From a virus: 41,348 nucleotides of DNA. The position numbers and the translations under genes are program-made. Shown one piece after another: positions 3,683 through 41,348 of this stretch (position 1 is its first letter; each line of letters starts with the position of its first letter). The notes beneath the pieces are model-generated. The model saw only the letters and a program-made list of their open reading frames with translations. It made no database searches and had not been told where the DNA came from. The stretch is from IMG/VR virus record IMGVR_UViG_3300048609_000070; one strand, written 5' to 3'.

Positions 3683-3688
3683 AAATTT

Positions 3689-3760
3689 GCCCTGGTAGCT
3701 CAATGGTAGAGCGGCGGACTGTTAATCCGCGTATAGATGTTCGATCCATCTCCGGGGCGT
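3689..3760 (+). tRNA. tRNA-Asn (anticodon GTT)
   Basis: Cloverleaf read by eye: acceptor GCCCTGG/CCGGGGC (one G-U), D arm TAGCTCAATGGTAGAGC, anticodon stem GCGGA/TCCGC with loop CTGTTAA, T arm AGATG-TTCGATC-CATCT. No encoded CCA. Confidence 0.8.
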
Positions 3761-13787: not shown

Positions 13788-14324
13788 CTAGGGCTTCAAC
13801 TGCCTAATTTGCTTCTCCGGGATCTCGGAGAGCCCCACATTGTTTCCCGTCCAAGCTCGGATGTCTCGCACCCATCGTTCGACCTGACTTCGCCATTGGG
13901 GGTTTTCCTCATCGACGTTCCCGGGCCGGACCAAGAAGATGTCGATGTCGCTGAATATGTCGCCATCCGCGCGCGCTGTCGAGCCGAAGAGAGATGCGTG
14001 ATGGGGGGCGATCTTCCATTTGCTCAGCGAATTCCGGAGCCGTCGCAAGAGTTCCTCACGCATCCCGGCCAACTTCTCGACGGCTTGCGCGGCGATGTGT
14101 TTTCTGTTGAGTGTGTAGAGAATGGCTTTTCCTGCTTCTTGCGCATTCACAATCCCGTGCTCTACGAGCCGATGCAGCGCTCGGTTTACCCCCGTCTGTG
14201 AACCGCCTTTTACGAGCTTTGCAACTTCACGCCCGGTCAGCGGCCGTGTTGTTCCTGCGAGCACGACAAGCAGCTCTCCGCTGAGATTCGAGCATACGGT
14301 ATGGTAGGGTCTAGAGACGTTCAT
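13788..14324 (-). CDS. winged-HTH + minimal nucleotidyltransferase (MNT/pol-beta superfamily) fusion protein
   Basis: N-terminal MarR-like wHTH (TGREVAKLVKGGSQTGVNRALHRLVEHGIV). C-terminal GSTARADGDIFSDIDIFLV matches the GSxaRGxx..SDIDLlV NTase motif. Confidence 0.7.
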   Translation of the reverse strand: MNVSRPYHTVCSNLSGELLVVLAGTTRPLTGREVAKLVKGGSQTGVNRALHRLVEHGIVNAQEAGKAILYTLNRKHIAAQAVEKLAGMREELLRRLRNSLSKWKIAPHHASLFGSTARADGDIFSDIDIFLVRPGNVDEENPQWRSQVERWVRDIRAWTGNNVGLSEIPEKQIRQLKP

Positions 14325-16686: not shown

Positions 16687-17211
16687 TTACTTGACTCCAA
16701 ATTCGTCTAACAACTTTATTAGTTCCTCTCCGTTCTTCTTAAATGACTTTTGGATCTCTTCTATTTTTCCTTCTGTCAGCGTAGTCTCTATCTTTGTTAT
16801 TGCAAGCTCCGTCAGACGGTTCTTATTTTTGATGTAGATCTCTTTGAGTCCTTCTTTGATTGCAACGCGCCGTAAGAGATCATCATGCTCCACAGATTGT
16901 AATGCTCCATGCTCGTAACGTGACAAGTCTTCTTCATCTATCTGCAAGAGCAGAGAAAACTCAGCAAGAGAAAGCCCAAGATTTTCTCTACAGGCAAGGA
17001 TCTTTTCAGGTTGGATCATCCCGTGTTTATCTCGGTAAGCGCGATACGCTGCAGCGGCAAAGTCAAACCCTTCAATGCCCCATTCCGCGTTACACAGCGG
17101 ACACGTGTTAAAGTGGTCCTCGTAGAGAACATCTTCGTGTCTGACCACAACTAATCTTGGCGCTACTTGTAAGGATGGCGTTATTTCTTTATCGCAGTTT
17201 GGACAAAGCAT
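16687..17211 (-). CDS. MqsA-like Zn-ribbon + XRE-HTH protein with a C-terminal extension
   Basis: CPNC...CPLC N-terminal zinc ribbon. ILACRENLGLSLAEFSLLLQIDEEDLSRYEHG is an XRE-type HTH. Same domain order as antitoxin MqsA. Confidence 0.6.
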   Translation of the reverse strand: MLCPNCDKEITPSLQVAPRLVVVRHEDVLYEDHFNTCPLCNAEWGIEGFDFAAAAYRAYRDKHGMIQPEKILACRENLGLSLAEFSLLLQIDEEDLSRYEHGALQSVEHDDLLRRVAIKEGLKEIYIKNKNRLTELAITKIETTLTEGKIEEIQKSFKKNGEELIKLLDEFGVK

Positions 17212-18966: not shown

Positions 18967-19455
18967 CTACGCTGCAAGGTCTTTCTTCAGGTACGCCCGC
19001 GCTCTCCGGATAGCTCTCTTGTGGCGCCACGAGATGAGAGCAGGGGAACAGCCCTTTGATGGTGCGATTTCTCGGATTGTCTTTTCTTCGAGGTACATCT
19101 GAGAGAGGACTTCGACATCCTCTGGGGTCAAGTGCTGATAGATGGCATGCACATCGATCACTGCATCATTCATTGGATACTGTACTATACCAGAACGTAT
19201 ACAGGAGCAGTTCTTATTTTCTCTACACTCATGTCGGCAGGCGTCCATGATGGCAGACTTCGCGCGCATGAGAAAGAACGTGGATGGAGCAGCACCTCTT
19301 GATGGATCGTAGTCTGAAATGGATTTCATGGAGGCTTCATTTCCGATTTGTATGAGGTCTGAGATATCAAAACGGTAGGCAGTCCAGCGGAGATACTTAG
19401 CGGCGAGTCTCCTTATCTTCTGTTGGAAATCGTTTGAAGCAATCAATTCCTTCAT
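18967..19455 (-). CDS. ECF-like sigma-70 family sigma factor
   Basis: Region 2: DLIQIGNEASMKSISDYDPSRGAAPSTFFLMRAKSAIMD. Region 4 HTH: LTPEDVEVLSQMYLEEKTIREIAPSKGCSPALISWRHKRAIRRAR. RBS AAGGAGAA before ATG 19455 (the ORF track extends to 19635). Confidence 0.7.
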   Translation of the reverse strand: MKELIASNDFQQKIRRLAAKYLRWTAYRFDISDLIQIGNEASMKSISDYDPSRGAAPSTFFLMRAKSAIMDACRHECRENKNCSCIRSGIVQYPMNDAVIDVHAIYQHLTPEDVEVLSQMYLEEKTIREIAPSKGCSPALISWRHKRAIRRARAYLKKDLAA

Positions 19456-19843
19456 TTTTATTCTCCTTGTCAATAAGGTAACGAATGAGCATGGATTCTT
19501 TGACGATCCGTTTCTTGTCCTGGTCCGCGAGGAGGCCCACCGCGCGTACTTCTCCACGTGTTCTGACTGTAATTTCCATTCCCCAGACAGCGGGACCCCA
19601 ACCAAATGGATGGCTGGAGAGACGGACTTGCGCAAGCTCGTCGTAGCTCTTGCCTGAGTCTATTTTTCGTTTGTCTTCTGGTGAGCATGGCATTGCCAAG
19701 ACGCCCTCAAAATCGCCATCGACATAGAGGAGCCTTATTCTGCATGCATCTTCGGGTTCTCGAACGATTTGTTTCAATTCTGCAAGGGTCTGATAGGGGA
19801 AATCCTCTTTGTTTATTTCGGGCTTTGTGTAGGTCTTTTTCAT
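19397..19843 (-). CDS. hypothetical protein; its start codon abuts the IS left end
   Basis: 148 aa beginning MKKTY. No RBS directly upstream. A perfect AAAGGAGG lies on the far side of the IS at 21255-21262. Confidence 0.55.
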   Translation of the reverse strand: MKKTYTKPEINKEDFPYQTLAELKQIVREPEDACRIRLLYVDGDFEGVLAMPCSPEDKRKIDSGKSYDELAQVRLSSHPFGWGPAVWGMEITVRTRGEVRAVGLLADQDKKRIVKESMLIRYLIDKENKNEGIDCFKRFPTEDKETRR

Positions 19844-19939
19844 CGGAAATTCGCCCGGGCGGAGACTCTGGCGTTTACGCCGGTGAGGAGCCCGGGCCTC
19901 CTTTCTCTGTCGTTATATGCCTTCCTGATCTGAATTCGC

Positions 19940-19969
19940 TTGACTTGTCTATAGATGCCAATCTATACT
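19940..19969 (+). promoter_or_regulatory. tnpB promoter TTGACT-18-TATACT
   Basis: -35 at 19940-19945 and -10 at 19964-19969, 8 bp before ATG 19977. Confidence 0.4.
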
Positions 19970-19976
19970 TTGACCC

Positions 19977-21233
19977 ATGCAGATTCGCAAGGGATTCCGC
20001 TACCGCATCTACCCTTCGCCCGAGCAGATCGAACGACTCGGGCAGTGGGAGAATGCGCTTCGGTTTCTTTGGAACCTCGCTCTCGATCAGCGTCTTTTGT
20101 GCCTCAACCGGACGCGGTACAACCGGGTCTTTCTGACAGCCTTCGACCAGATTAACGAACTGACCGAACTCCGTAAGGAAGTCGCTTGGCTCGCTGACGT
20201 TCCCAGGAACGTTTGTGCTCAGCTTCTGGTCGAGCTCGATAGGTCCTGGCAGCGCTGCTTCAAACGCATCGCAAAACAACCCCGCTGGAAGAAGAAGGGC
20301 CGGGACTCTATCGGGATCTGCGAGCCCCATCCGAAGGTGTGGCAGCTGGATGGGCGTACATTGCGCTTTCCCAAGCTCGGGGCAATCCCTGTAGTGCTGC
20401 ACCGGCCGCTCGAAGGCAAGCCCAAGACATGCACCATCCGCCGTGATGGGGACCAGTGGTTTGTGAGTATCTCGTGCGAGGTCGATGTGGCAGATCCTGT
20501 CCCTTCCAACAAACCCGCGATTGGCTTGGATCGGGGCGTCGTCAATCTGATCGCCGGTTCTGACGGGCGGCTCGTTCCCAACCCAAGACATCTCTCGGGA
20601 ACCCAGCGGCGGCTCCAACGAGCCCAACGGGTGGTGGCGAGAAGAAGAAGGGGTTCGAAGAATCAAACGAAAGCCAAGGGCCGCGTTGCCAGGCTGCATC
20701 GCAAAGTCCGCAGGCAGCGCGAGCACATCCTCCACGTCGAGTCCCACCGCATCGCCAAGAGCCACGGCCGTGTGGTGGTTGAAAAGCTCGATGTGAGGAA
20801 CATGTCCCGAAGTGCCAAGGGGACACTCGAAGTCCCGGGCAAGCGTGTGAAGCAGAAGGCCGGGTTGAACCGGGCCATCCTGGATTCGGGATGGGGCGCG
20901 TTCGTGGTCATGCTGCGGTACAAATTGGCCTGGGCCGGAGGGGTGCTGGTCGAGGTCCCCGCTGCCTACAGCTCGCAGACCTGCTTTCTCTGCGGGGCGG
21001 TAGATCCCCGAAGCCGTGTGTCGCAGTCGGAGTTTCGCTGCACGGCTTGCGGGCATGAAGCACACGCGGACATCAACGCGGCGAAAGTGTTGCTCAGCCG
21101 AGGAAACCTCGGTGGTGCTGTCTGTGGAGGATCCGCTGAAGTAGGGCGTCCTGTGAAGCAGGAACTCCGCGTCGTGAGGCGTGGACAACGGTCTAAGCAT
21201 GGTTCAGAGCTTCTCCAAAGCTCGGGCCTTTAG
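19977..21233 (+). CDS. tnpB: TnpB (OrfB) RuvC-like RNA-guided nuclease of IS200/IS605 family
   Basis: N-terminus FRYRIYPSPEQ. RuvC-I GLDRGV. Zn finger CFLCG...CTACGHEAHADINAAKVL. 418 aa. Confidence 0.85.
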   Translation: MQIRKGFRYRIYPSPEQIERLGQWENALRFLWNLALDQRLLCLNRTRYNRVFLTAFDQINELTELRKEVAWLADVPRNVCAQLLVELDRSWQRCFKRIAKQPRWKKKGRDSIGICEPHPKVWQLDGRTLRFPKLGAIPVVLHRPLEGKPKTCTIRRDGDQWFVSISCEVDVADPVPSNKPAIGLDRGVVNLIAGSDGRLVPNPRHLSGTQRRLQRAQRVVARRRRGSKNQTKAKGRVARLHRKVRRQREHILHVESHRIAKSHGRVVVEKLDVRNMSRSAKGTLEVPGKRVKQKAGLNRAILDSGWGAFVVMLRYKLAWAGGVLVEVPAAYSSQTCFLCGAVDPRSRVSQSEFRCTACGHEAHADINAAKVLLSRGNLGGAVCGGSAEVGRPVKQELRVVRRGQRSKHGSELLQSSGL

Positions 21234-21260
21234 GCCGGGGTAGTTTACGGGAGCCTCCTT
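21080..21260 (+). ncRNA. predicted omegaRNA (reRNA) scaffold spanning the 3' end of tnpB and the right end
   Basis: Inferred from the known TnpB architecture; only the right-end hairpins are seen directly. Confidence 0.3.
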
Positions 21261-21278
21261 TTGGGTGGGAAGGCTAAC

Positions 21279-21950
21279 TTACTTGAAAGAAAGAGGCAAG
21301 AGAAATTTTCGGTAGAATTCCTTGACGTTCTCAAAGTTCCGAGGAGCGAAGTGTCCCGTGGCGTAACGCCGTTTCCCTACGAGTCTGACCTTCACGGACT
21401 TTGCATAAGCGATCTTCCGGATTTGACTTGGTGTAATTTTGTAGAAGGCAAAATCTAAAATAAATCGTAGCCCGGAATCTACGACATCTTGCTGTGCTCC
21501 TTCAGTTTTTAGCTTTATTACTTTTCCATCCACGATGAGTTGCAGCGATTCACCGTCTGCAATGAAGAGACCGGCGTCACTCCGGAATGTTGCGGCAACG
21601 CTGATGTAAACGTAGCCCGTATCGAATTTGTGTACGTAAATGTCAAACCCGATTGGTAAGGAACTCTTGTCTTTATCATCTGACAAGATGAAATTTTTCT
21701 GCATGGAATTCGAAGTCATTTTGTCGAATTCGTCGTACTTGGATTTGTACTCCATGCTTGTTCCCGCGTAGTCAATTTCATCATCAATGTCATCATTCGA
21801 TGTTTCGTGTTGTCCAAGCTTCGTCTCTAGATTTTTTATTTCTTCTTGACGCTCCTTGATCTGCGTATTGAGATCTTTTACTCCCAGCGGTTGAGCGCTG
21901 GCTGCCATCGCGTGAAGCGTGGCAACGATCACACAAAAAATGTTCTTCAT
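21279..21950 (-). CDS. secreted protein, unknown function
   Basis: Signal peptide MKNIFCVIVATLHAMAASA; 223 aa. Confidence 0.6.
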   Translation of the reverse strand: MKNIFCVIVATLHAMAASAQPLGVKDLNTQIKERQEEIKNLETKLGQHETSNDDIDDEIDYAGTSMEYKSKYDEFDKMTSNSMQKNFILSDDKDKSSLPIGFDIYVHKFDTGYVYISVAATFRSDAGLFIADGESLQLIVDGKVIKLKTEGAQQDVVDSGLRFILDFAFYKITPSQIRKIAYAKSVKVRLVGKRRYATGHFAPRNFENVKEFYRKFLLPLSFK

Positions 21951-21961
21951 AACTTTCTCCT

Positions 21962-22192
21962 TTAGTACGTTCTTTTTTTATAGGGAATGCGTCTTTCGAG
22001 GTAGGCAACCCGATGCTCCAAAGCGTCACATCTAGCTTCCAGCTCATTAGCTCTTGCCTCAAGCTGTTCTTGCTCAGTCACGATGTCATCGACAACGCAT
22101 GCGAAGACATCTAGAATAAGCTGCTTTTCTTTTTTTGGGAGGTTGCAGTAGTTGACCAGCGGGATGATCACGTGTTCGAGCGCTTCGCGCAT
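21962..22192 (-). CDS. small coiled-coil protein
   Basis: 76 aa, heptad-like EQLEARANELEARCDALEHRVAYLERR. Confidence 0.45.
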   Translation of the reverse strand: MREALEHVIIPLVNYCNLPKKEKQLILDVFACVVDDIVTEQEQLEARANELEARCDALEHRVAYLERRIPYKKRTY

Positions 22193-22208
22193 GCTTTATC
22201 CTCGAAGT

Positions 22209-22856
22209 TTAGTTGACGTTTAGTCCTATCTCTTCTCCGCATTCTACACAAATCAAAGGTTCCGGGCAAGCACCACGTTCTTTAATCGTGCTTCCTACTA
22301 TTTCTTTCGAAAGTTTCGAGTTGGCCCACAGCACGCCAAGGCGTTGCAAGGGCCGGTTTGAATTCCAGTATAGTGCCTCCCCATCTGGAAATTGCTTTGG
22401 CGCACAATCCGCGCAAACAAACTGGCATTCCTTTGAAGCGTTTTTACCACAGGAACAATAACCAAGGAGCAAACGCCAGCCATCGCAGGTATGAACGTAA
22501 CCCAAAGACTCCGCAACGTCCGTTGTTGCGGGATCTGCGCCCCATCCATCTTCAATTCGAGATGCATCATTGAACTCTTCTTCTGCCTTTTCGATGTCTC
22601 CAGACTCATGCGATTCAATTGCTGACTTTATACAATCTTCATAACTTTCGGCGGAGTCCCATATTTCCATTTCTTCCTGGACGAGACACATAGCATCTTC
22701 CATCGAAATTTCCTCGTATATTTCTTGGAAGATCTGAAAGATTTCCTCGAACTCTTCATTGCGGAAGTGCTCGGCAATCTTTTTGAATTCTTCACCATTA
22801 AACCTCTGGCTTATGCTATGGAACCATTCTTCCTTTGTCTCGTATTTTACTGCCAT
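22209..22856 (-). CDS. hypothetical acidic protein with a Cys-rich C-terminus
   Basis: 215 aa; CSCG...CADC...CVEC. Confidence 0.55.
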   Translation of the reverse strand: MAVKYETKEEWFHSISQRFNGEEFKKIAEHFRNEEFEEIFQIFQEIYEEISMEDAMCLVQEEMEIWDSAESYEDCIKSAIESHESGDIEKAEEEFNDASRIEDGWGADPATTDVAESLGYVHTCDGWRLLLGYCSCGKNASKECQFVCADCAPKQFPDGEALYWNSNRPLQRLGVLWANSKLSKEIVGSTIKERGACPEPLICVECGEEIGLNVN

Positions 22857-22865
22857 GACTTCCTC

Positions 22866-23174
22866 CTATGGAATTTCTTTTAGTAGCCTTTGGATATCGC
22901 GTTCCGTGAGGGAGACATTTTCTCCTTCATCGTCGATTCTTACGATGAAGAAAGTCCCGTAAACTAGATCGAGATTTGGAATCACACGGTTTGCTTCCTT
23001 CGTGTATCGGCCTGTGCTATGACATATGACCATGAGACTCGGAAAGTTTGGAACAGCCCAACCTTCAATGTACCCTTCGACAACCTCTTGTGAAGCTTCC
23101 AAGGTGTTGTCAATCTCGGTCAGGATGGGTGGGAGTCCTACTTTGTAAACAAGCACTTTGATTTTTTTTGTCAC
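22866..23174 (-). CDS. hypothetical protein
   Basis: 102 aa, tightly packed with neighbouring genes. Confidence 0.5.
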   Translation of the reverse strand: MTKKIKVLVYKVGLPPILTEIDNTLEASQEVVEGYIEGWAVPNFPSLMVICHSTGRYTKEANRVIPNLDLVYGTFFIVRIDDEGENVSLTERDIQRLLKEIP

Positions 23175-23822: not shown

Positions 23823-24093
23823 GTTTAGCTCCTTTAGGTTTTACAAAGAAGAGGGTTCCATACCCTCTCCTTATGAATTCGTTCAGATCAACTCCCAGCG
23901 CATCAGCTTCCAGACTGCCCGGCCAGAAGCCTGTCCAGCGGGCGAAGAACCGATCATGATCCTCGCAACCGCAACCAATAAATTGTCCACCGCAAGAGCT
24001 GCAGCGCTCAACATCACAATTCCCTTTGTGGATTTCTCCTGGTCTGACTCCGCAGTCTGGGCAATTTCTCGATACCGGGACCTTCTTTGCCAT
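23812..24093 (-). CDS. Cys-rich Zn-binding small protein
   Basis: CPDC...CDVERC...CGCEDH; 93 aa. Confidence 0.5.
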   Translation of the reverse strand: MAKKVPVSRNCPDCGVRPGEIHKGNCDVERCSSCGGQFIGCGCEDHDRFFARWTGFWPGSLEADALGVDLNEFIRRGYGTLFFVKPKGAKHGK

Positions 24094-28007: not shown

Positions 28008-28391
28008 TTATTTCTCCTTGGTTCTTTTGCAATGGCAGATCCGGGTGTTATTTCCTAATGTCACACCATGCCAGGTTTTTCCATCGGGACCTCGAAACCA
28101 GACGTCATAGCGGACTCGTGCTATGTTGTGCTTTCCGATCTTGATCCTGCAAGGATAGCTCATTGTCCCAGGCCAATTACTGACTTTGCCTGATGTAGCA
28201 TCCAAACGGGTGAGGTAAAGCGTAATTGCACCCGTCTCGATCATGTAAGCTTTGTCCTCTATAGCGCAACAGTCAAAGCAGAGATCTCCGGCAGGACCAT
28301 ATTCATTTGCAGAGTTTCTCCGGCCATAACCTGGAGTATTTCCGGCTGGCACGATTTCTTTCTTACAGTCCACGCAAACGAATGCTTTCAT
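28008..28391 (-). CDS. Zn-ribbon protein (start uncertain, 28391 or 28442)
   Basis: CVDC...CFDCC; RBS GGGAGAG before ATG 28391. Confidence 0.45.
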   Translation of the reverse strand: MKAFVCVDCKKEIVPAGNTPGYGRRNSANEYGPAGDLCFDCCAIEDKAYMIETGAITLYLTRLDATSGKVSNWPGTMSYPCRIKIGKHNIARVRYDVWFRGPDGKTWHGVTLGNNTRICHCKRTKEK

Positions 28392-32043: not shown

Positions 32044-32110
32044 GATCTTTCTCCTCTTTTTTGACCTGTCATGTTTGGAGTTTAGCAACTAAACTCCAAC
32101 GGTTGACATT

Positions 32111-33665: not shown

Positions 33666-33750
33666 ATTTCTCTCCCGATCCACACGGCCAACCATGTGAG
33701 ACCCACCAAGCTAAAGTTTAGTGCTAATACCGCCAATGTAACCCCTTGAG

Positions 33751-33984
33751 TCATTTTCTTTCCTTTCTTGAAAGTTCGATCTGGCGCAAGACCTCTCTTG
33801 CGTCAGGCCCAACTGTCAATTCCATCGGATCGAAACATAGTACCAGACATCTTCCATCCCAGCAGCAGCCCCAACCGTCTGGTGTTCCACCCTTGCCTCC
33901 ACAGGCGGGGCAGGCCGTCGCCAGAACTTCTGGTGCAAAATCAGGCCATTTGACAATAACTTTAACTTTTTTAACCTTTTTCAT
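33751..33984 (-). CDS. Cys-rich small protein; last gene before the noncoding region
   Basis: RBS GGAGGT before the internal ATG at 33984; CPACGG...GCCWDGRC. Confidence 0.45.
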   Translation of the reverse strand: MKKVKKVKVIVKWPDFAPEVLATACPACGGKGGTPDGWGCCWDGRCLVLCFDPMELTVGPDAREVLRQIELSRKERK

Positions 33985-34599
33985 GTTACCTCCAAGTTTA
34001 GGTCTAAAACTTCCGATCCTGATCTCTAGCATCTCACCACGCCACAGATCAAGATCGGAAAGACACTGGGATTGATTCTGCGAACTCTGAAGTTGTCTAG
34101 ATTGCGCTTGCTTATCCAAGCGGATTGAGTCTTTACACCCCGTAGACCTCGATCTTCCACACTCCGGAAAACGCCTTTCCCTGTGCGCCAGGGTAGCTAT
34201 GTGAGCCGCGTCACTTGAGCACTTCAGATCTCAGTTTGACCAGACTGTCCATTTGGTCCTGACTCCCGGAGTCAGTCTGATCCCGTCAGATGTAAAGCCG
34301 ACCGGTTTTCAAAGAGCAGCTGGAATCCGAAGTTCCAGTTCCGTTGGATCCAGTGACTTAGGATCCTCTGGTTTTTCCCTTTCCTTTCCCCTGCAGACAT
34401 CCAGCTGCAGGTTCTGATGGCCGTGGTCCTCTCGTTTTCTGTGGAGGACCGTTTTCCCAGGTGCCGTACCTACCATCCATTGCACTCCGCGTGCCAAGTT
34501 TAGTCGCCAGGAAAATCAACCCCACATGTTTTTGCGATGCGAACCGTTCTACACTCCTCTCTAGCAAATCCACAACGAAGGATGTGAACTAAACTGCGC

Positions 34600-35100
34600 T
34601 CTCCGTGTAAACTTATGCTCAAAGAGAGAAGGAAAGAACCCTCCGGGTCGATGCCAAAAGCTAAGGAAGGCCCTCCGGGGCCAAAAACTAAAGAGGAGCA
34701 CGCAGGAAGGGGGAAACCTAAAGACGCACCCCCGGAAAGAACCTTGGCAAGCGGGATCTTTAGTCGGAAAGAACATGACCCCCAGCGAAGGAAAGGAACC
34801 TCGCGGAAAAAGAACCGGAGGAATCCTTTGCCGGAGCGCAACAAAAACGAAAGCTGCGAGGAAACCACCCGAGGCAACGAAACCGCTCTGGCCAACATCG
34901 GGGAAAGCTAAACCTGAAGGAAGGAACCCAGGAAGGATGCAAAGGCAAGACGCGCAATCTAGCCTCGGAGGAAACGAAAGGACGCTCCCATGGAAAGAAG
35001 GGAAACCGAAAAAGCTACCAGGGGAATCTAAACTGGGAAGGAACCTGCCAAAAGACTTCCATGAGACTAACCTTAGAACGAGGATCCATCGGAAGGAACG
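34600..35100 (+). repeat. purine-rich degenerate tandem array of GGAAAGGAACC-like units (about 15 copies, spacing about 20-35 bp)
   Basis: By eye: ggaaagaacc, ggaaaggaacc, ggaaggaacc, gaaaccacc, ggaaacgaaagg and similar recur; plus strand about 75% purine. Only low-complexity K/E/R/P-rich ORFs cross it. Confidence 0.5.
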
Positions 35101-35679
35101 AGAGTAGGCTTACAGCGTTTAGTCACAGAAGGAATGAAAGGATCCTATGGAGCTTCCCCTGTACGAACCTAAGCGAGAGCCTACTCTAGCCTGTGGAACT
35201 AACCTGTGCTAACCTTGTATGCCTTGCCTGCTACCCTACCGATGGCCGTAACTAACCTTCAACATCATCTTGCTACGGGCTTTCCATACGAGGGTGCACT
35301 TTCCATGAGACTAAACTTTAGCACTAACCTGTTAGCGTGAGACGGGTGCGTGCTACTCCGCGGAGCGGGTTGACCCTCCGGGCATGTCTATGGGGATCCC
35401 TCACACATGCTGTCCGCTGGCTGTACAGGCTATCTTGTTACATTCTGTGCGAGTAACCGCGCGTGGGGGGTCAGTTGCAGATAAACTTTAGAGTCATCCA
35501 TAGTTGTATTTTACAACTAAACTTCGATTAACGAGCCTATGTGCGCCCTTTGAAGCCCCCTCTCCCGAAAAATGTAGGCCATTTCCTGACGTTTGGTTTA
35601 GCTCAAACCGCGTATTGTTTAGTCTTTTGATTAGTTTTATCGGAACTAAACTAAAGTGTGTATCCCGCTGCACGGAGGT

Positions 35680-35910
35680 AACGCCGGGCGGTTGGCGCCC
35701 GGGCTCCCGGGCCAGCGTGGTCAACCCTCCGGCGCGCTGATCGGCGCAAGACGCGGGGCCTTCCCGCGCAGCACGCGGAGCTCCGCGCCGTCGCCTCCGG
35801 CGCTTGGATGCGCGTCTTGAGCGCTTAGGAGCCCACGCAAGCGCTATCGGCGCGCGGAGCCTTATCCGCGCTGGCCAGCGCATGCTCTCAGCGCCTGCAG
35901 GCTCCTCTGG
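35680..35910. other. isolated ~230-bp GC-rich island (>70% GC) with nested inverted repeats
   Basis: GCGCAAGACGCG...CGCGTCTTGAGCGC and GCGCTT-N12-AAGCGC inverted repeats. CGCCGGGCGG ... CTCCCGGGCC resembles the IS left-end motifs CGCCCGGGCGG ... AGCCCGGGCC at 19852-19900. Confidence 0.4.
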
Positions 35911-36239
35911 CTAATCTCGCTTTCCTTCCCTACTGAGAGGAGAGCAAGTTGCGAACCCTACGATTGCCAGACCCGTTACCAGACGAACGGAAAGGCCCCT
36001 TCCCTGCGTTCCAATGACTGGGGGGCCATCATGGTATTCCTTTGGGGGTCCAATCGATTCTAGGCCCCTTGGAACGCTCCACAGGGCCTATCGAGGAAAA
36101 CTTCAATGATTTCAAGGGTAGGATTTCCAATGATGTAGTAGCAGCTTTATCCCTGTATCAGGAGAGATACAGTCTACCTCTGAAAATTGGCCTAACATAC
36201 AAGCATTGTTTATGTTTATCTTTTTGTTCACATAACTGA

Positions 36240-37240
36240 TGTTATCGGACTTTGGACTAATGTTTAGTTATTCTCATTAGTTATCTTTGTGTAAGTTTCA
36301 GGATTTTGCTGTAGCTACGAAGAGACATCAATCGTACAGGAGTGCTTCATGGGATTCAGACCCCCATGCTTAGGTCCGGGAATGTTTAGTTATTTTTGGG
36401 GAGTGTAGTTTAGTTCCTGGAGGTGTTCCAGGGGTGGGATCCAAACCTCCCGGTTTAGTCTAGTGGATTTGCTATAGTTTAGTTAGTGCCGCATTAAAAT
36501 CCCTGCCTCTTGGGGAGGCTCCGCCCCCCAGGGTTACCCCCGCAGTATGGATGGATTAATTTTTAGATCTGTGTTTAGCATATATAGCTCCTATCCGCAT
36601 GCGAGAGTAGAAAGCAAGCAGACGGCATATTCCCCTTCGGACCTACCCGTTCGTCGCGCAAATAAAGTGACAAAAAATTTTGGGAATTTCTGGAAAAATC
36701 TTGTTTAGCTTATTAAGTTACATCCCTTTGCCGAGCCTATTGCCCTTTGTTCTTCCAAGCAGAAGAAATACCTCCTGCCTCCTCATGAGGCTGGGGTTAC
36801 CCCCACTTCTAGAAATTAATTTTTTGGAAACCTATGTTTAGCATATTCCTTCTTCTTCCGTTCCTTCTTATGGCTACACCCCTTTTTTCTTTCATGCCTT
36901 CTTCCTTCAGGTCTTTAGAGCTCTTTCTCCTTTTTTGGGTCTTTCCTTTGGTAGATCTTTAGTTTTTGGTTCTTTCCCTTTGTTCAGCTAATAAGTGTAC
37001 AAAAAATTTCGAAAAAATTGGGTAGAATCTTGTATAGTATATTTAGTACCATACTTTTTGGTAGGTGTTTCCTTCCTCGTAGTTTTTGGATGTCTCTCCT
37101 TGGAAATCAAGAAAGGGATTGTTTAGCTTTTCCTTCGTGTTTAGCTAATAAAGTTACAAAAAATTTTGGAAAACTGGAAGAAAACCTTGTATAGGTTATT
37201 TAGGTACACTTTCCTTAGAATTTATTTTTAAGGAGGAAAA
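36240..37240. repeat. iteron-like region: at least 10 copies of TGTTTAG(C/T)TA-type motifs, three copies of a ~70-bp repeat, two copies of a GGGGTTACCCCC module
   Basis: ~70-bp repeat (core TAATAA(A)GTKACAAAAAATTTYG...CTTGTWTA...TTTAG) at 36655-36725, 36982-37053, 37136-37208. Module GGGGTTACCCCC-N-ATTAATTTTT-N-TGTTTAGCATAT at 36527-36585 and 36794-36848. The strand here is pyrimidine-rich, the reverse of 34600-35100. Confidence 0.55.
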
Positions 37241-37348
37241 ATATAGTTTTTTTCAGAATCTGAGGGAAAAATTTGGGAGGCTGGTAGTGGGTGGGGCCGA
37301 GTTCCCGTAGGAGCTCGACTGCAGCCTGTCGAAGAGTCTTCGACGTGT

Positions 37349-37525
37349 CGCTCATGACACCCCCGAATTCGACACCGCCACAGCGGCGACCGCGTTAGCA
37401 ACGACTGTCATACGCAAAAACCCCGCGCCGTTCTGTCGAAGCCACTCTTTCCGCTCTCGGACCACAAAGTCGATGATGGTCAAGAGGCCATCATGCTCTT
37501 TCAGTGGAGCGTGAGCTTCCAGCAT
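37349..37525 (-). CDS. 58-aa ORF overlapping the hsdR stop (TAATG), at the GC/AT junction
   Basis: [20 protein letters not shown]...; followed by a 46-aa ORF (MSDTSKTLRQAAVELLRELG...) that runs into the AT-rich DNA and degenerates. Confidence 0.25.
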
Positions 37526-40500
37526 TAGCTCAACACTCCTTCCGCCATCAGTTCGGCCTGGCGGATCACCAACTGCGTTGCGGATTCCTGCGCATCGGGC
37601 GGATAGCCGTACTTCGTTAGCAAGCGGCGTACGGTCCGGCGCATGTCTGCTCGAACCGTCTCCCTTTGCGTCCAGTCCAGAGACGCCTTAGCCTTGATCC
37701 GATCAGCGAGTTCCCGAGCGATTAGCTTCAGCGTGTCGTCCTGCATCACATTGCGAGCTGATTCGTTGTCGGCGAGGGCGTCATAGAACGCGACCTCGTC
37801 TTCGCCGAGCCCAGACTCCTCGCCACGATGTACAGCCTCGCGGATCGCCCTGGCCAGACCGATTAGTTCCTCGATAACTTGCGCTGTCGTGAGAGCCCGG
37901 TTGGTGTAACGGGTGAGTGTTGCCTCCAACGATTCGCGGAAGCCTCGCGACTGTACGATATTGACTCGTTCCCGGCTACGTATCTGGTCGTTGAGAAGCT
38001 TTCGCAGTGTCTCAAGAGCAAGGTTTCTGTGCGGCAACGAAGCCAACCGTTCCAGGAAATCCTCGGACAGAATGCCAACGTTCTGTTCCGGCAATCCGGC
38101 AGCCTGGAAGAGGTCAATAACACCGTCCGAAGCGATCGCGCCCGAGATCACCTGCCGCACAGCCGCTCGTGAATCCGGCGGTGGCGGCGGGCCATCGTCC
38201 GCGAGCCGCTTGCGTATCGCCGCCCGCACGGACTGAAAGTACGCCAAGTCGTCTCGAATGACCTCGGTCTCTTTGCGCGGCACAGACAGTGCAAACGCCT
38301 TCGACAGGCCTGCGACCATTGTCATGAACCGCCGCTTGCCGTCCTCCTGCTGGAACACGTAGTCCGCACCGGCCGACACGGCGTGCAGTTGATCCGCCTC
38401 CATGCCTTTGAAAAACCCGCTGTAGTCGAAACTGTTGAAAAAGTCCTTGAGGACCTCGAATTGTCGCTCCATCAGCGGAACGGCTTCATCTTGAATCTTC
38501 TCGACGGGGTTACCCTCGCCGCCCGCTTGAGTGTATGTCTGCACTGCGTCACGGAGCTGATCGGCGATTCCGAGAAAATCGACCACGACGCCGCCGGGCT
38601 TCTCACCAAACACACGGTTCACACGGGCGATAGCCTGCATTAGGTTGTGGCCGGCAAGTGGCTTATCGAGATACATCGTGTGCATCGGTGGGCAGTCGAA
38701 TCCCGTCAGCCACATATCGCAGACGATCACGAGCCGCAGCTCATCCTCGGGGTCCTTGAACCGCCTTGCCAAGGCTTCCCGTCGAGCCTTCGTCCTGGCG
38801 TGCTGAGCGACGCGGTTCCCTTCGCCCGCTGAGCCGGTCATCACCACCTTGATGAACCCGGCATCGTCTTCGTCCGCGTGCCAATCCGGCCGGAGCGTCA
38901 CGATCTCATCGTACAGATCCATGCAGATGCCGCGACTCATGCACACTGCCATGGCCTTGCCCTCGATTACCTCCCGCCGCTTGACGAAGTGCTCGACGGC
39001 CTCTCTGGCCACCAGCTTGAGCCGCTCCTTTGCGCCGACGAGCTCTGCCAGCGGCACCTCGATGTCCGCCGGAATCTCGCGGCCTTCCTTCTCGGCCTCT
39101 GTGGCGGCGCTGAGTATCTGTTCGGCTTCAGCGATGCCAGCTTCGTCCGGCAGCAGCTTCACCAGCCGCATCTCGTAGTAGATCGGTACCGTCGCGTTGT
39201 CGTTTATGGCCTGGCGGATATCATATATGTCCGCGTAGTCGCCGAAGACGGCCGGCGTACTGCGGTCGTCACGTTCCAGCGGAGTGCCCGTGAAACCGAC
39301 GAAGGTCGCGTTCGGGATCGCGTCCCGCATCCATCGAGCGCCGCCGTCGAGGAACCCGTACTGGCTGCGATGAGCCTCGTCAGCCATGACCACGATGTTC
39401 GACCGCCCACTGACTGCCTCGCCGCGCTCCTTGAATTTCTGGATGGTCGTAAACACCACGCCCCCGGAGGCGCGTTGCAAACGAGAGGCGAGGTCGTCGC
39501 GGCTCGCGGCCTGCTCCGGTTCCTGGCGCAGTAGGGCCCGTCCCGCCGCGAAGGTGCCAAAGAGCTGGCCGTCAAGGTCGTTGCGGTCCGTCACAACGAC
39601 AACGGTCGGATTCGCCAGTTGATCGTCGCCGATCAACGACCCGGCCAACATCAACATGGTTAGGCTCTTGCCCGACCCCTGTGTATGCCAGATTACTCCG
39701 CCGCGACCGTCGCCCCCGCCGACCGGCGGCTTCAGTGCCGCCTTCACCGACGCCCGCGCATTGCGTACCGCCCGAAATTGGTGATACCCCGCTACCTTCT
39801 TGACTATTTCGCCGCTGCGGTCGTCCTCCTCAAACGTCACGCAGTGCCGCACGTAGTCCAGCAGCCGCGACGGATCGAGCAGCCCCTTGATGAGCACTTC
39901 CAGAACGGGCCGACCGGGCTCCCGATAGTCTTCGATGGATCGCCACGGCGAGAAGCGGTCCGAGCCAGCTGTCAGCGACCCAACCCGCGTAGTGTCACCG
40001 TCGCTGACCACCATCAATTCGTTGTAGACGAACAATGGTGAGATGTGCTGCTTGTAATCTTGAAGCTGGCGGTACGCCTTCCAGATATCTGCTTGCTCGT
40101 TGGTCGAGTCCTTCAGTTCGACCACCACCACCGGCAGACCGTTGAGGAACACGACGAGGTCCCCCCGACGCGTACTGTTGCCGCACTTGACCGTGAACTG
40201 GTTGACCGCCAGTAGGTCATTTCGCTCGGGCCGGGCGAAGTCCACCAGCCACGCCTTGTCGCCGCGAGTATCGCCAGCCTTTGTGCGGTACTCCACGTCG
40301 ATGCCGTCGGTCAGCAGGAGATGGAACCAACGGTTGTTTTGCGCAAGCGTTGGCTCGGGCGGGCGTGTGACAGCGCGCACAGCCTGCTCGATGGCATCTT
40401 CGGGTAGCTTCTCGTTGATTTTTCGTAACGACGCCCGCAGGCGCGGCTCCAAAACCACATGCTCGTGACTCTCCCTAAGCGGCGTCTCCGCACCGGGCGA

Positions 40501-40581
40501 GATATCGGCGCCCCGAGCGATGTCGAAACCGAGGAACTCGAACCAGGCGAGGGCAGCCTTTTCCACGATGTTTTCGTTCAT
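37525..40581 (-). CDS. hsdR: type I restriction-modification system R subunit (HsdR)
   Basis: HSDR_N-type N-terminus [19 protein letters not shown]. Helicase motifs GSGKS, DEAH box [19 protein letters not shown]. 1018 aa, about 63% GC. Confidence 0.9.
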
Positions 40582-41183
40582 TCAACGTTCTCCCCGGCCT
40601 CTGGCTCGTCAGCGCCCACTTCTTGTTCTTCCTTGAACTCGATCAACGCGGCCCGGTACGCCGAGAAATCCGTGCGGAACAGCGCCTCGCTAGCAATCAG
40701 CGAAACATTCAGCACTGCAAATGGCCCGTAGTCGTTATCGATATGTTCGTCGAAATCCGAGTGGACTCCGTACCGGAAGCGCGTCAGCGGATCACGTTGC
40801 GCTGAACTCAAGTGCGTCTTGAACAGCAAGCCAACAACCGCATCCGTTGCTCGCGCCAGAATTTCGGCGTAGCGCGCATCGAGAAGCGGCGAGTAGGCGT
40901 CCGCCCCATGGGCTGCAGAGCCGTGGGCATTCCGGATTTCGACCACCCCTTGGACAATCTGATTCAACCCGCGGACCAATGATTCAGCGCCGCCGCGCAA
41001 CTTAGCGTCAACACCTCCATCTTCAGTTAGCCCGAGATTGAGATACTTGAGCGCTTCGGAAACGAGCTTCGGTGCCTCCCATCCGGCATCTACCGGCACG
41101 CTGCGGTCCGCGAGGATGGTCTTACAGGTCGTCTCTATGATCGTTCTGCAAAACGAGACGACAACACCGGGCCGGGCCGGCAT
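40578..41183 (-). CDS. Abi_C-domain (abortive-infection C-terminal domain) protein embedded in the type I R-M operon
   Basis: Conserved [11 protein letters not shown] motif typical of Abi_C; ATGA overlap with the hsdR start. Confidence 0.65.
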
Positions 41184-41207
41184 TGCCTCCTCTAGCGCCT
41201 CGACTTG

Positions 41208-41297
41208 CTAGCGGATTCGCAGTGATTCAGGGTGCGCATCCAGTAGTTCGCGGCATGCCGCAAGGAGCACGGGAGAACTAGTCGGGTTATCCGCCAT
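41208..41297 (-). pseudogene. in-frame 29-codon N-terminal extension of the Abi_C gene, separated from it by a single TAG
   Basis: ATG 41297 with RBS GAGGGGGT 6 nt upstream. Reads [46 protein letters not shown]... in the same frame as 40578-41183. Confidence 0.35.
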
Positions 41298-41348
41298 AGT
41301 TCACCCCCTCGTCCCTGGAGACTCGGAGCTCTCCTGACGTCAGTTTTG

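Follow-up and report, generated by a model that had tools for sequence, protein, structure and literature searches.

What does a phage-like genome do with more than three kilobases of DNA that encode no protein? Large phages are considered to leave almost no DNA unused, and kilobase-scale untranslated regions are rare in them. The region considered here lies in the right part of a 41,348-nt stretch of DNA, IMG/VR virus record IMGVR_UViG_3300048609_000070. The whole of this stretch was analysed and is called the window. It is a low-GC (~0.45) mobile genome, and its source contig is 136.5 kb. The original prediction, made from the letters of the window alone, described a protein-free region with many repeats and proposed a replication origin plus a partition or regulatory hub, and/or a locus for long structured non-coding RNAs (ncRNAs). 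Our results confirmed that the gene-free stretch is real and is not ordinary repeat DNA. We tentatively favour, with a probability of about 35%, the reading that it is a DNA-level cis-acting control or origin-like hub, which would be recognised by a factor that reads the word GTTTAG and would contain early-promoter cassettes. All functional statements are inferred from one sequence without relatives.

The region starts beside the first gene of a leftward gene block (ATG at 33,985-33,987 on the minus strand, with a GGAGG Shine-Dalgarno (SD) sequence upstream) and ends at about 37,280, where the GC content jumps. Fourier analysis showed that 3-base periodicity was absent throughout 33.8-37.3 kb, with each 351-nt segment at background (<=1.2) and the flanking genes at 2-12. 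The internal open reading frames (ORFs) gave zero matches to Pfam and PHROG, permissive thresholds included. The best ORF, with 110 codons in a purine-rich block, had a single marginal low-complexity match among 1.84 billion representative proteins. Frame preference of the purine-block ORFs was weak (0.02 and 0.095, against 0.186 +/- 0.095 in genes), and they appear gene-like by codon usage because real genes are also purine-rich. Reading through TAG, TGA or TAA opened no convincing long ORF in the region. Hidden genes were rejected on the periodicity, the family searches and the lone marginal match of the best ORF. The earlier statement that no credible ORF is present holds between 33,988 and 37,280; the segment 37,215-37,525 is a portion of the adjoining GC-rich island and has two small ORFs. 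An independent Logan assembly contig (L032, 8,298 bp) reproduced the region and both flanks at 100% identity. This indicates that the region is not a mis-assembly; being identical, L032 adds no sequence variation. No DNA relatives were found by blastn against phages and plasmids, or with a specific 23-base pattern in viral and genome collections, and the 179-aa flanking gene was an ORFan in database searches.

One short word stands out in the region. The window has 34 copies of GTTTAG, with 14 expected, and 20 of these copies fall in a 2.9-kb part of the region, where about one is expected. Only two of its 18 one-mismatch variants, CTTTAG (8 copies) and GGTTAG (5 copies), are enriched, and the three forms together give about 33 sites in the region. 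There are 11.4 sites per kb in the region and 0.84 per kb elsewhere, and the word is at background frequency in the 8.4 kb to the right of the window. The word is 6-7 bp long, (G/C)TTTAG or GGTTAG, and has a preference for a 3' Y without a longer flanking consensus. Since it is sharp and has few one-mismatch neighbours, selection appears to act on the word itself and not on decaying duplicates, and this sharpness argues that something may read it. TGTTTAG, the motif named in the original prediction, has eight copies in the right arm.

The sites are also oriented. All 12 sites to the right of 35,655 lie on the plus strand, while to the left 14 of 21 lie on the minus strand and 7 on the plus strand (Fisher p = 1.6e-4). 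At the centre, where the orientation switches, sites at 35,596 and 35,617 are on the plus strand and sites at 35,646 and 35,651 on the minus strand, in the arrangement GTTTAGT-N20-ACTAAAC. Five GTTTAGT sites follow at 36,262, 36,384, 36,408, 36,453 and 36,477, every one on the plus strand. The word fits neither integron attC sites (GTTRRRY) nor Xer/dif sites as these are commonly defined, and a literature search on GTTTAG gave no relevant match.

The right arm contains three repeats, R1-R3, of 66-67 nt and 73-81% identity, in agreement with the three repeats of about 70 bp reported earlier. Each shows an A-tract, a TTGGAA-like box, N18 and TATAGK, and by this layout the cassettes look like early promoters of the genome. 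Behind R3 there is an orphan SD (37,229-37,235, AAGGAGG-N6-ATA, with ATA in the place of ATG) but no gene, and then the foreign island. The two modules of the original prediction, M1 and M2, were also found; the copies are 75% identical over 56 nt. Outside the region, promoter-like sites occur on the minus strand of the gene block at ~7,000, ~9,050 and ~13,230 (TTGACA or TTGGAC, N17-18, GATAAW). The site at ~9.05 kb (ig9) lies in sense orientation ahead of a gene and shares GTTTAG, the A-tract and a -35-like box with the R cassettes, and its GTTTAG and A-tract stand upstream in the same relative order as in R2 and R3. Palindromic pairs of the word exceed chance, and some are present in intergenic spacers. 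The position of the word upstream of promoter-like units, together with these inverted pairs, would fit a DNA-binding factor. A 20-bp palindrome that looks like an operator, TTTTGTCCAATTGGACAAAA, overlaps the site at ~7.0 kb.

At the left edge, the RNA of the minus strand would form a hairpin (34,011-34,062) of -40.5 kcal/mol (z = -5.8), a stability that none of 200 shuffles reached. It is the sole strongly structured element of the region and precedes the gene at 33,751-33,987. It may attenuate or terminate transcription, serve as an RNase III site, or stabilise a 5' end. One arm of this hairpin (34,047-34,062) has a 16-nt perfect inverted match at 28,131-28,146, 5.9 kb downstream in the gene block; chance alone would give ~0.06 matches of this kind. 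On a leftward RNA, this second site could compete for the 5' arm of the hairpin.

The composition of the region changes along its length. The predicted purine-rich array was recovered as a low-complexity block in which GGAARGRAAC-type units cluster, composed of GGAA(A/G)GAACC units with CTAAA(C) sites interspersed; on the minus strand the unit reads GGTTCYTTCC-N2-10-(G/C)TTTAG-N-TTTCCCC. Compared with dinucleotide shuffles, the block is enriched in GGA (32 in 535 nt, z = 3.6), AGGA (18, z = 4.4) and AAGGAA (8, z = 4.8). A reading of the block as ECF-type (GGAAC-N16-CGT) or sigma-54-type promoters was dropped, as only one or two instances fitted by eye. The flip of purine/pyrimidine strand bias is real. 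The pyrimidine-rich part, however, does not extend over 1 kb as had been stated: strong bias is confined to 36,750-36,985. AT-rich stretches with a GC content of 0.28-0.39 lie at 36,150-36,300 and 36,900-37,250. The palindromic sites were also recovered, the 11-bp CTAAANTTTAG having two exact copies (33,711 and 35,311) and three one-mismatch copies, with 1.2 expected. The island above 70% GC was confirmed, with 73.4% GC over 35,660-35,900. It is probably foreign DNA, and it folds about equally on the two strands (z = -2.75 and -2.25). We rejected its derivation from the TnpB insertion or the restriction-modification (R-M) island described below, since it showed no similarity to either or to any fetched locus. 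The sequence CCCTCCGG occurs four times on the plus strand of the region (34,639, 34,671, 35,374 and 35,725), one copy being inside the GC island, and five times in the window (1.5 expected). The features are collected in Table 1.

Table 1. Features of the untranslated region and of the island to its right, in window coordinates
Feature	Position	Strand	Description
Untranslated region	33,988-37,280		3,293 bp, GC 0.486; bounded by the leftward block's first gene and the GC-rich R-M island
Hairpin	34,011-34,062	-	Long, nearly perfect, with UUUU behind it; the first gene's SD lies 12 nt downstream
Purine-rich, T-poor block	34,576-35,100	+	525 bp, 63-69% purine, T 8-12%, low complexity
ACTAACCT cluster	35,060-35,335	+	Five copies, the GGTTAGT variant on the minus strand; palindrome CTAAACTTTAG at 35,311-35,321
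AT-richer centre	35,480-35,655		Orientation switch point of the word; small hairpins present
GC island	35,655-35,905		250 bp, 73% GC
AT-rich stretch	36,200-36,500	+	TGTTTA x3.7 in tandem at 36,207-36,228, plus five GTTTAGT sites
Module M1	36,531-36,583	+	Small hairpins including GGGTTACCCCC, then ATTAATTTTT, then TGTTTAGCATAT
R1 promoter-like repeat	36,652-36,722	+	A-tract, TTGGGA, N18, TTTAGC
Pyrimidine-rich block	36,750-36,985	+	235 bp, 25-39% purine; units of the purine block inverted (TTCCTTCAGGTCTTTAG, GGTTCTTTCC)
Module M2	36,794-36,846	+	Second copy of M1
R2 promoter-like repeat	36,972-37,046	+	TCGAAA-N18-TATAGT; the sole site of the region that passes a sigma-70 consensus scan
R3 promoter-like repeat	37,127-37,208	+	GTTTAGC at ~-60, A-tract, TTGGAA, N18, TATAGG
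GC-rich type I R-M and Abi_C island, left part	37,280-41,348	-	GC 0.55-0.65, ~7 kb in all
hsdR	37,525-40,581	-	R-M island
abiC	40,578-41,183	-	R-M island; between hsdS and hsdR

Taken as a hub, the region might work as follows. A single sequence-specific factor, from the element or its host, would recognise the word. It would be loaded in opposite orientations by the two arms around the centre at 35.5-36.2 kb, R1-R3 would act as early-type promoters firing rightward, and the hairpin would gate the passage of transcripts into the leftward gene block of 28 kb. The likeliest job of such a hub would be the organisation of early transcription at the point of divergence. Origin-like loading of a replication factor by the arrays is also possible, because some phage and satellite origins consist of oppositely oriented arrays of short sites around an AT-rich core. 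The AT-rich stretches and the oppositely oriented sites of the region are compatible with an origin without establishing one. Tests for an origin were mostly negative. Iterons, as three or more direct repeats of ~17-22 bp, usually in helical phase, were not found; the recurring unit is just 6-8 bp, its spacing is irregular, and it is not helically phased (10.4-11 bp tested), so the label "iteron" was abandoned. No DnaA box was found in the region at <=1 mismatch. Rep, ParA, ParB, primase and helicase-loader domains were absent from the ~45 window proteins scanned, including the Rep- or ParB-like protein that had been thought a possible reader of the motifs; the neighbouring genes are ORFans, among which there may be a novel initiator. 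Cumulative GC skew forms a plateau over the region and falls on both sides, without inflection. For a partition centromere (parS/parC), no Par-family domain was found in the window, and CTAAANTTTAG is 11 bp long with two exact copies. A replication origin plus partition is neither shown nor excluded. Of the original proposal of a hub or origin, the regulatory part is supported at the level of sequence by the polarised motif array, the promoter-like cassettes, and the recurrence of the word at a promoter-like site and at gene starts of the adjacent block; most hallmarks of an origin or partition site failed.

The word also occurs at gene starts. CTAAAC, its reverse complement, lies in the sense of the leftward genes 10 times and antisense 3 times. 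Five of the 10 sense copies by script, and seven by eye, are within ~30 nt upstream of start codons, and CTAAAC is the top non-SD hexamer for association with start codons. Three of the start-associated copies include the TAA stop of the preceding gene. Copies at stop-start junctions or near starts are located at 22,207-22,223, 23,823, 24,422, 32,080-32,094, 33,711-33,721 and 33,996 (for example GGAGCTAAACATG). At 32,075-32,097, CTAAAC is part of a hairpin, GGAGTTTAG-TTG-CTAAACTCC, which would sequester an SD-like GGAG.

Several points weigh against a DNA-level hub. No candidate binding protein for the word was identified, and an origin would be expected to show DnaA boxes, an initiator nearby and an inflection of the skew, all of which the region lacks. 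The irregular spacing of the word belongs here too. The promoter calls are resemblance to a consensus, and promoter-like boxes at a fixed offset are missing after most copies of the word; a fixed-offset promoter behind each copy was rejected for this reason. The strict polarity of the right arm and the sense bias of CTAAAC suit a process at the level of RNA or single-stranded DNA at least as well as the binding of double-stranded DNA. The GGAAGGAACC low-complexity arrays and the GC island are accounted for by no model, the favoured one included. Finally, the region and the flanking ORFan genes have no relative in any collection searched, and thus there is no evidence from conservation or covariation.

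Another reading is at the RNA level, and we regard it as unlikely. The arms might be transcribed into unstructured regulatory RNAs, GA-rich decoys or sponges in one direction and CU-rich antisense RNAs with GUUUAG(C) in the other. As sponges, the RNAs would titrate a translational regulator or 30S subunits with their GGA/AGGA sites and with RR-CUAAAC, a mimic of translation-initiation regions; as antisense RNAs, the GUUUAG(C) transcripts would pair with SD-CUAAAC-AUG starts in the adjacent block. The density of GGA/AGGA in the purine block, about one per 17 nt, resembles that of CsrB, and the arms are unstructured, as sponge RNAs largely are between their sites. The association of sense CTAAAC with start codons and the strict polarity of the right arm also suit this reading, and the five GUUUAGC of the right arm are complementary to GCUAAAC at the starts at 23,823 and 24,422. 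However, canonical terminators are absent from the region, no Rfam sponge family was matched, and three of the start-associated copies just span the TAA stop of the gene before. Pairing between the arms reaches only z = -2.4, no better than GA-rich against CU-rich composition gives, and long-range pairing of the two arms was rejected for this reason. A more specific form, a 3-kb non-coding decoy, is a good deal more doubtful. The arm RNAs, with ~30 GGA/AGGA and ~30 CUAAAC (or antisense GUUUAG) sites, would mimic or mask the SD-CUAAAC-AUG regions of phage early genes and so titrate a regulator or ribosomal subunits, or silence the starts. If true, this decoy would be a phage-borne analogue of the CsrB-type sponges at a scale not described before. 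A locus for one or more long structured ncRNAs, as the original prediction suggested, would have to belong to a new family and is very improbable. The large gene-free stretch in a phage-like genome, the local hairpins and the fold of the GC island would favour it. Yet the Rfam 15 covariance models gave no match in the region at the gathering score or at E <= 5, and ARAGORN found no tRNA or tmRNA in it. Among 84 sliding 120-nt segments, few reached z < -2.5, mostly on both strands; the arms were near 0, and most segments lay between -1.5 and +1.5 on both strands. The segment 35,100-35,345 gave z = -0.7 and +0.4, one per strand. The equal folding of the GC island on both strands points to symmetry at the DNA level, and there are no homologues to carry covariation. 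A long structured RNA is thus not supported, because Rfam gave no match and the folding is unexceptional apart from the leader hairpin.

The region may instead be an eroded hyperplastic region, a graveyard of PeSL-like promoter/terminator cassettes after the loss of small early genes, with scars of insertions and no collective function. We consider this quite unlikely. The SD behind R3, with ATA for ATG and no gene, would suit such decay, and the genome evidently takes up insertions, as the two GC-rich foreign pieces (the island of 250 bp and the R-M island of 7 kb) and a TnpB insertion elsewhere in the window show. T4-type phages provide documented cases in which PeSLs mediate deletion between cassettes in tandem (PMC4122927). 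Neutral decay, however, does not yield 20 exact hexamers with almost no one-mismatch neighbours, nor strict polarity, nor 500 bp of purine bias built from units. In addition, 3.3 kb of junk is rarely kept in phage genomes, and no residual protein similarity was found. It is improbable that the region is a genome-end structure, such as a terminal-repeat boundary, a pac/cos region or a T5-type injection-stop zone. In one version the word would be Chi-like and would shield both ends from RecBCD/AddAB, with CTAAAC facing outward from a central break. Like a Chi site, the word is short and sharp and depends on orientation, its orientation switches around one point, and a contig of 136.5 kb is in the class of T5 and T4. 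Moreover, large, conserved, untranslated and repeat-laden regions occur in the terminal repeat of T5-like phages (bioRxiv 10.1101/866236). Several findings disagree with this reading: paired DnaA boxes of the T5 style are absent, no terminase gene was found nearby in the 50 kb surveyed, the word is not enriched elsewhere in the genome, and the polarity of the left arm is only 2:1. A T5-type injection-stop signal would be expected in the terminal repeat, immediately left of the first-step-transfer shear point, and the region is known from an assembled contig, which does not show physical ends.

The best matches of the recognisable window proteins were in phages of 150-300 kb; these proteins are a RecT-like annealing protein, a VWA protein, an SNF2 helicase, a sigma-70-family protein, and proteins with DUF2786/DUF7168, DUF3846 and DUF4120. 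Helix-turn-helix (HTH) proteins of the element are encoded at 16,687-17,211 and 13,788-14,324, and a sigma-like one at 18,967-19,635. The term "phage-like" is our inference, because no virion or terminase gene was found in the 50 kb surveyed and the VWA protein also occurs on giant Streptomyces plasmids. The 428-aa RecT-like gene was tried as an anchor for comparison and discarded as promiscuous, its relatives having neither synteny nor a gene-free region. A gene-free gap near its homologue in Tunturiibacter phage Tunturi_5 (309 kb, an Acidobacteria phage) was likewise set aside: at 20,900-23,130, this 1.8-kb gap is a dense array of minus-strand tRNA genes, which is unannotated in the record features shown.

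To the right, a second contig (L033) overlaps the right end of the window at 100% identity and extends it by 8.4 kb with hsdS and hsdM. A complete type I R-M system (hsdM, hsdS and hsdR) is thereby present, in window 37,280-41,348 and L033 5,467-9,154. Past hsdM, L033 contains 14 small co-oriented ORFs with a GC content of 0.38-0.52, three of which have PHROG matches. Because phage-like ORFs continue beyond it, the R-M block is an island inside the element and the untranslated region is internal, flanked on both sides by leftward genes. On the same ground we rejected a prophage inserted in a host R-M locus, with the region as its right end and the GC jump as its junction with the host chromosome. 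The R-M cassette was found at 72-76% DNA identity in many metagenome contigs, with the homology ending exactly at the hsdR stop codon, and the block of R-M and Abi_C genes looks like a mobile defence cassette on a phage-like element. The search for an end of a prophage or integrative and conjugative element found no integrase, no att repeat, and no repeat of the tRNA-Asn 3' end at the GC junction. The element has a tRNA-Asn (GTT) at 3,688-3,760, and since its 3' end is not repeated at that junction, it is not an attachment site.

Two further insertions were noticed in the window. An IS200/IS605-type insertion with a GC content of 0.6 lies at ~19,850-21,270 between leftward genes and encodes TnpB (19,977-21,233, plus strand); a 441-aa ORF on the opposite strand is spurious. 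The nearest genomic relatives of this TnpB are 61-62% identical and come from Conexibacter, Polyangiales, Rokubacteria and Parcubacteria metagenome-assembled genomes. Identification of the host through TnpB was dropped, as these genomes are unrelated. A UDP-glucose/GDP-mannose dehydrogenase (232-2,070) is split by an intein; the weak Intein_splicing match covers residues 327-454 and separates the central domain of the enzyme from the C-terminal one.

If the word loads an initiator, a regulator or a nuclease modulator, the region would represent a new class of cis-element in a phage lineage of mostly ORFan genes. One countable, polar word of 6-7 bp, which also stands at the gene starts of the neighbouring early block, makes its reader testable on DNA or RNA. 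Among known systems, the ori and crr octamers of P4 and the hexamer/octamer sets of SaPI origins are 6-8-bp words in both orientations around a core, read by the element's own initiator or helicase. The region likewise has a repeated word of this length, oriented both ways and flanking a core. These origins, however, are 0.1-0.5 kb long and are found within the initiator gene or beside it, whereas the array here covers ~2.9 kb with irregular spacing, no recognisable initiator and no skew inflection. The CsrB/RsmZ sponges are discrete transcripts with many GGA motifs in loops or single-stranded spacers, read by a cognate CsrA of the host, and are alike in having GGA/AGGA at about one per 17 nt over ~0.5 kb. 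Unlike them, the region has no Rfam match, no evident presentation of the sites in hairpin loops (z ~0) and no delimiting promoter or terminator.

The repeat regions of phage T5 are the best-known untranslated hubs of a large phage and are not understood mechanistically. In the left terminal repeat of T5, untranslated repeat regions of 0.2-1.2 kb are built on DnaA boxes in pairs and on inverted repeats of 131 bp. Conserved across 25 phages, these regions are a candidate injection-stop signal, and their function is still hypothetical (10.1101/866236). The region shares with them a kilobase-scale protein-free stretch beside early genes in a virulent-type phage genome of more than 100 kb, as well as nested direct repeats, inverted repeats, palindromes and short protein-binding words. 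In contrast, it is 3.3 kb long, has neither DnaA boxes nor 131-bp inverted repeats, and has no relative. The PeSL of T4-type phages are promoter/terminator cassettes of ~60 bp with an AT-rich upstream part, sigma-70-like boxes and a 3' SD (PMC4122927). R1-R3 agree with this layout, R3 has an SD, and like PeSLs the cassettes lie in a plastic region beside insertions and deletions. However, this SD has no start codon or gene, only R2 passes the consensus scan, and the stem-loops of M1 and M2 are 110-170 nt from the R cassettes instead of adjacent. PeSLs also lie between ORFs, of which there are none here, and they leave the GTTTAG array and the purine block without explanation. The region thus meets the definition of none of these: T5 regions, PeSL, P4/SaPI origins or CsrB-type sponges. 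Three things set it apart among the untranslated repeat hubs of large phages: how large it is, that it has a single polar word, and that gene starts share this word.

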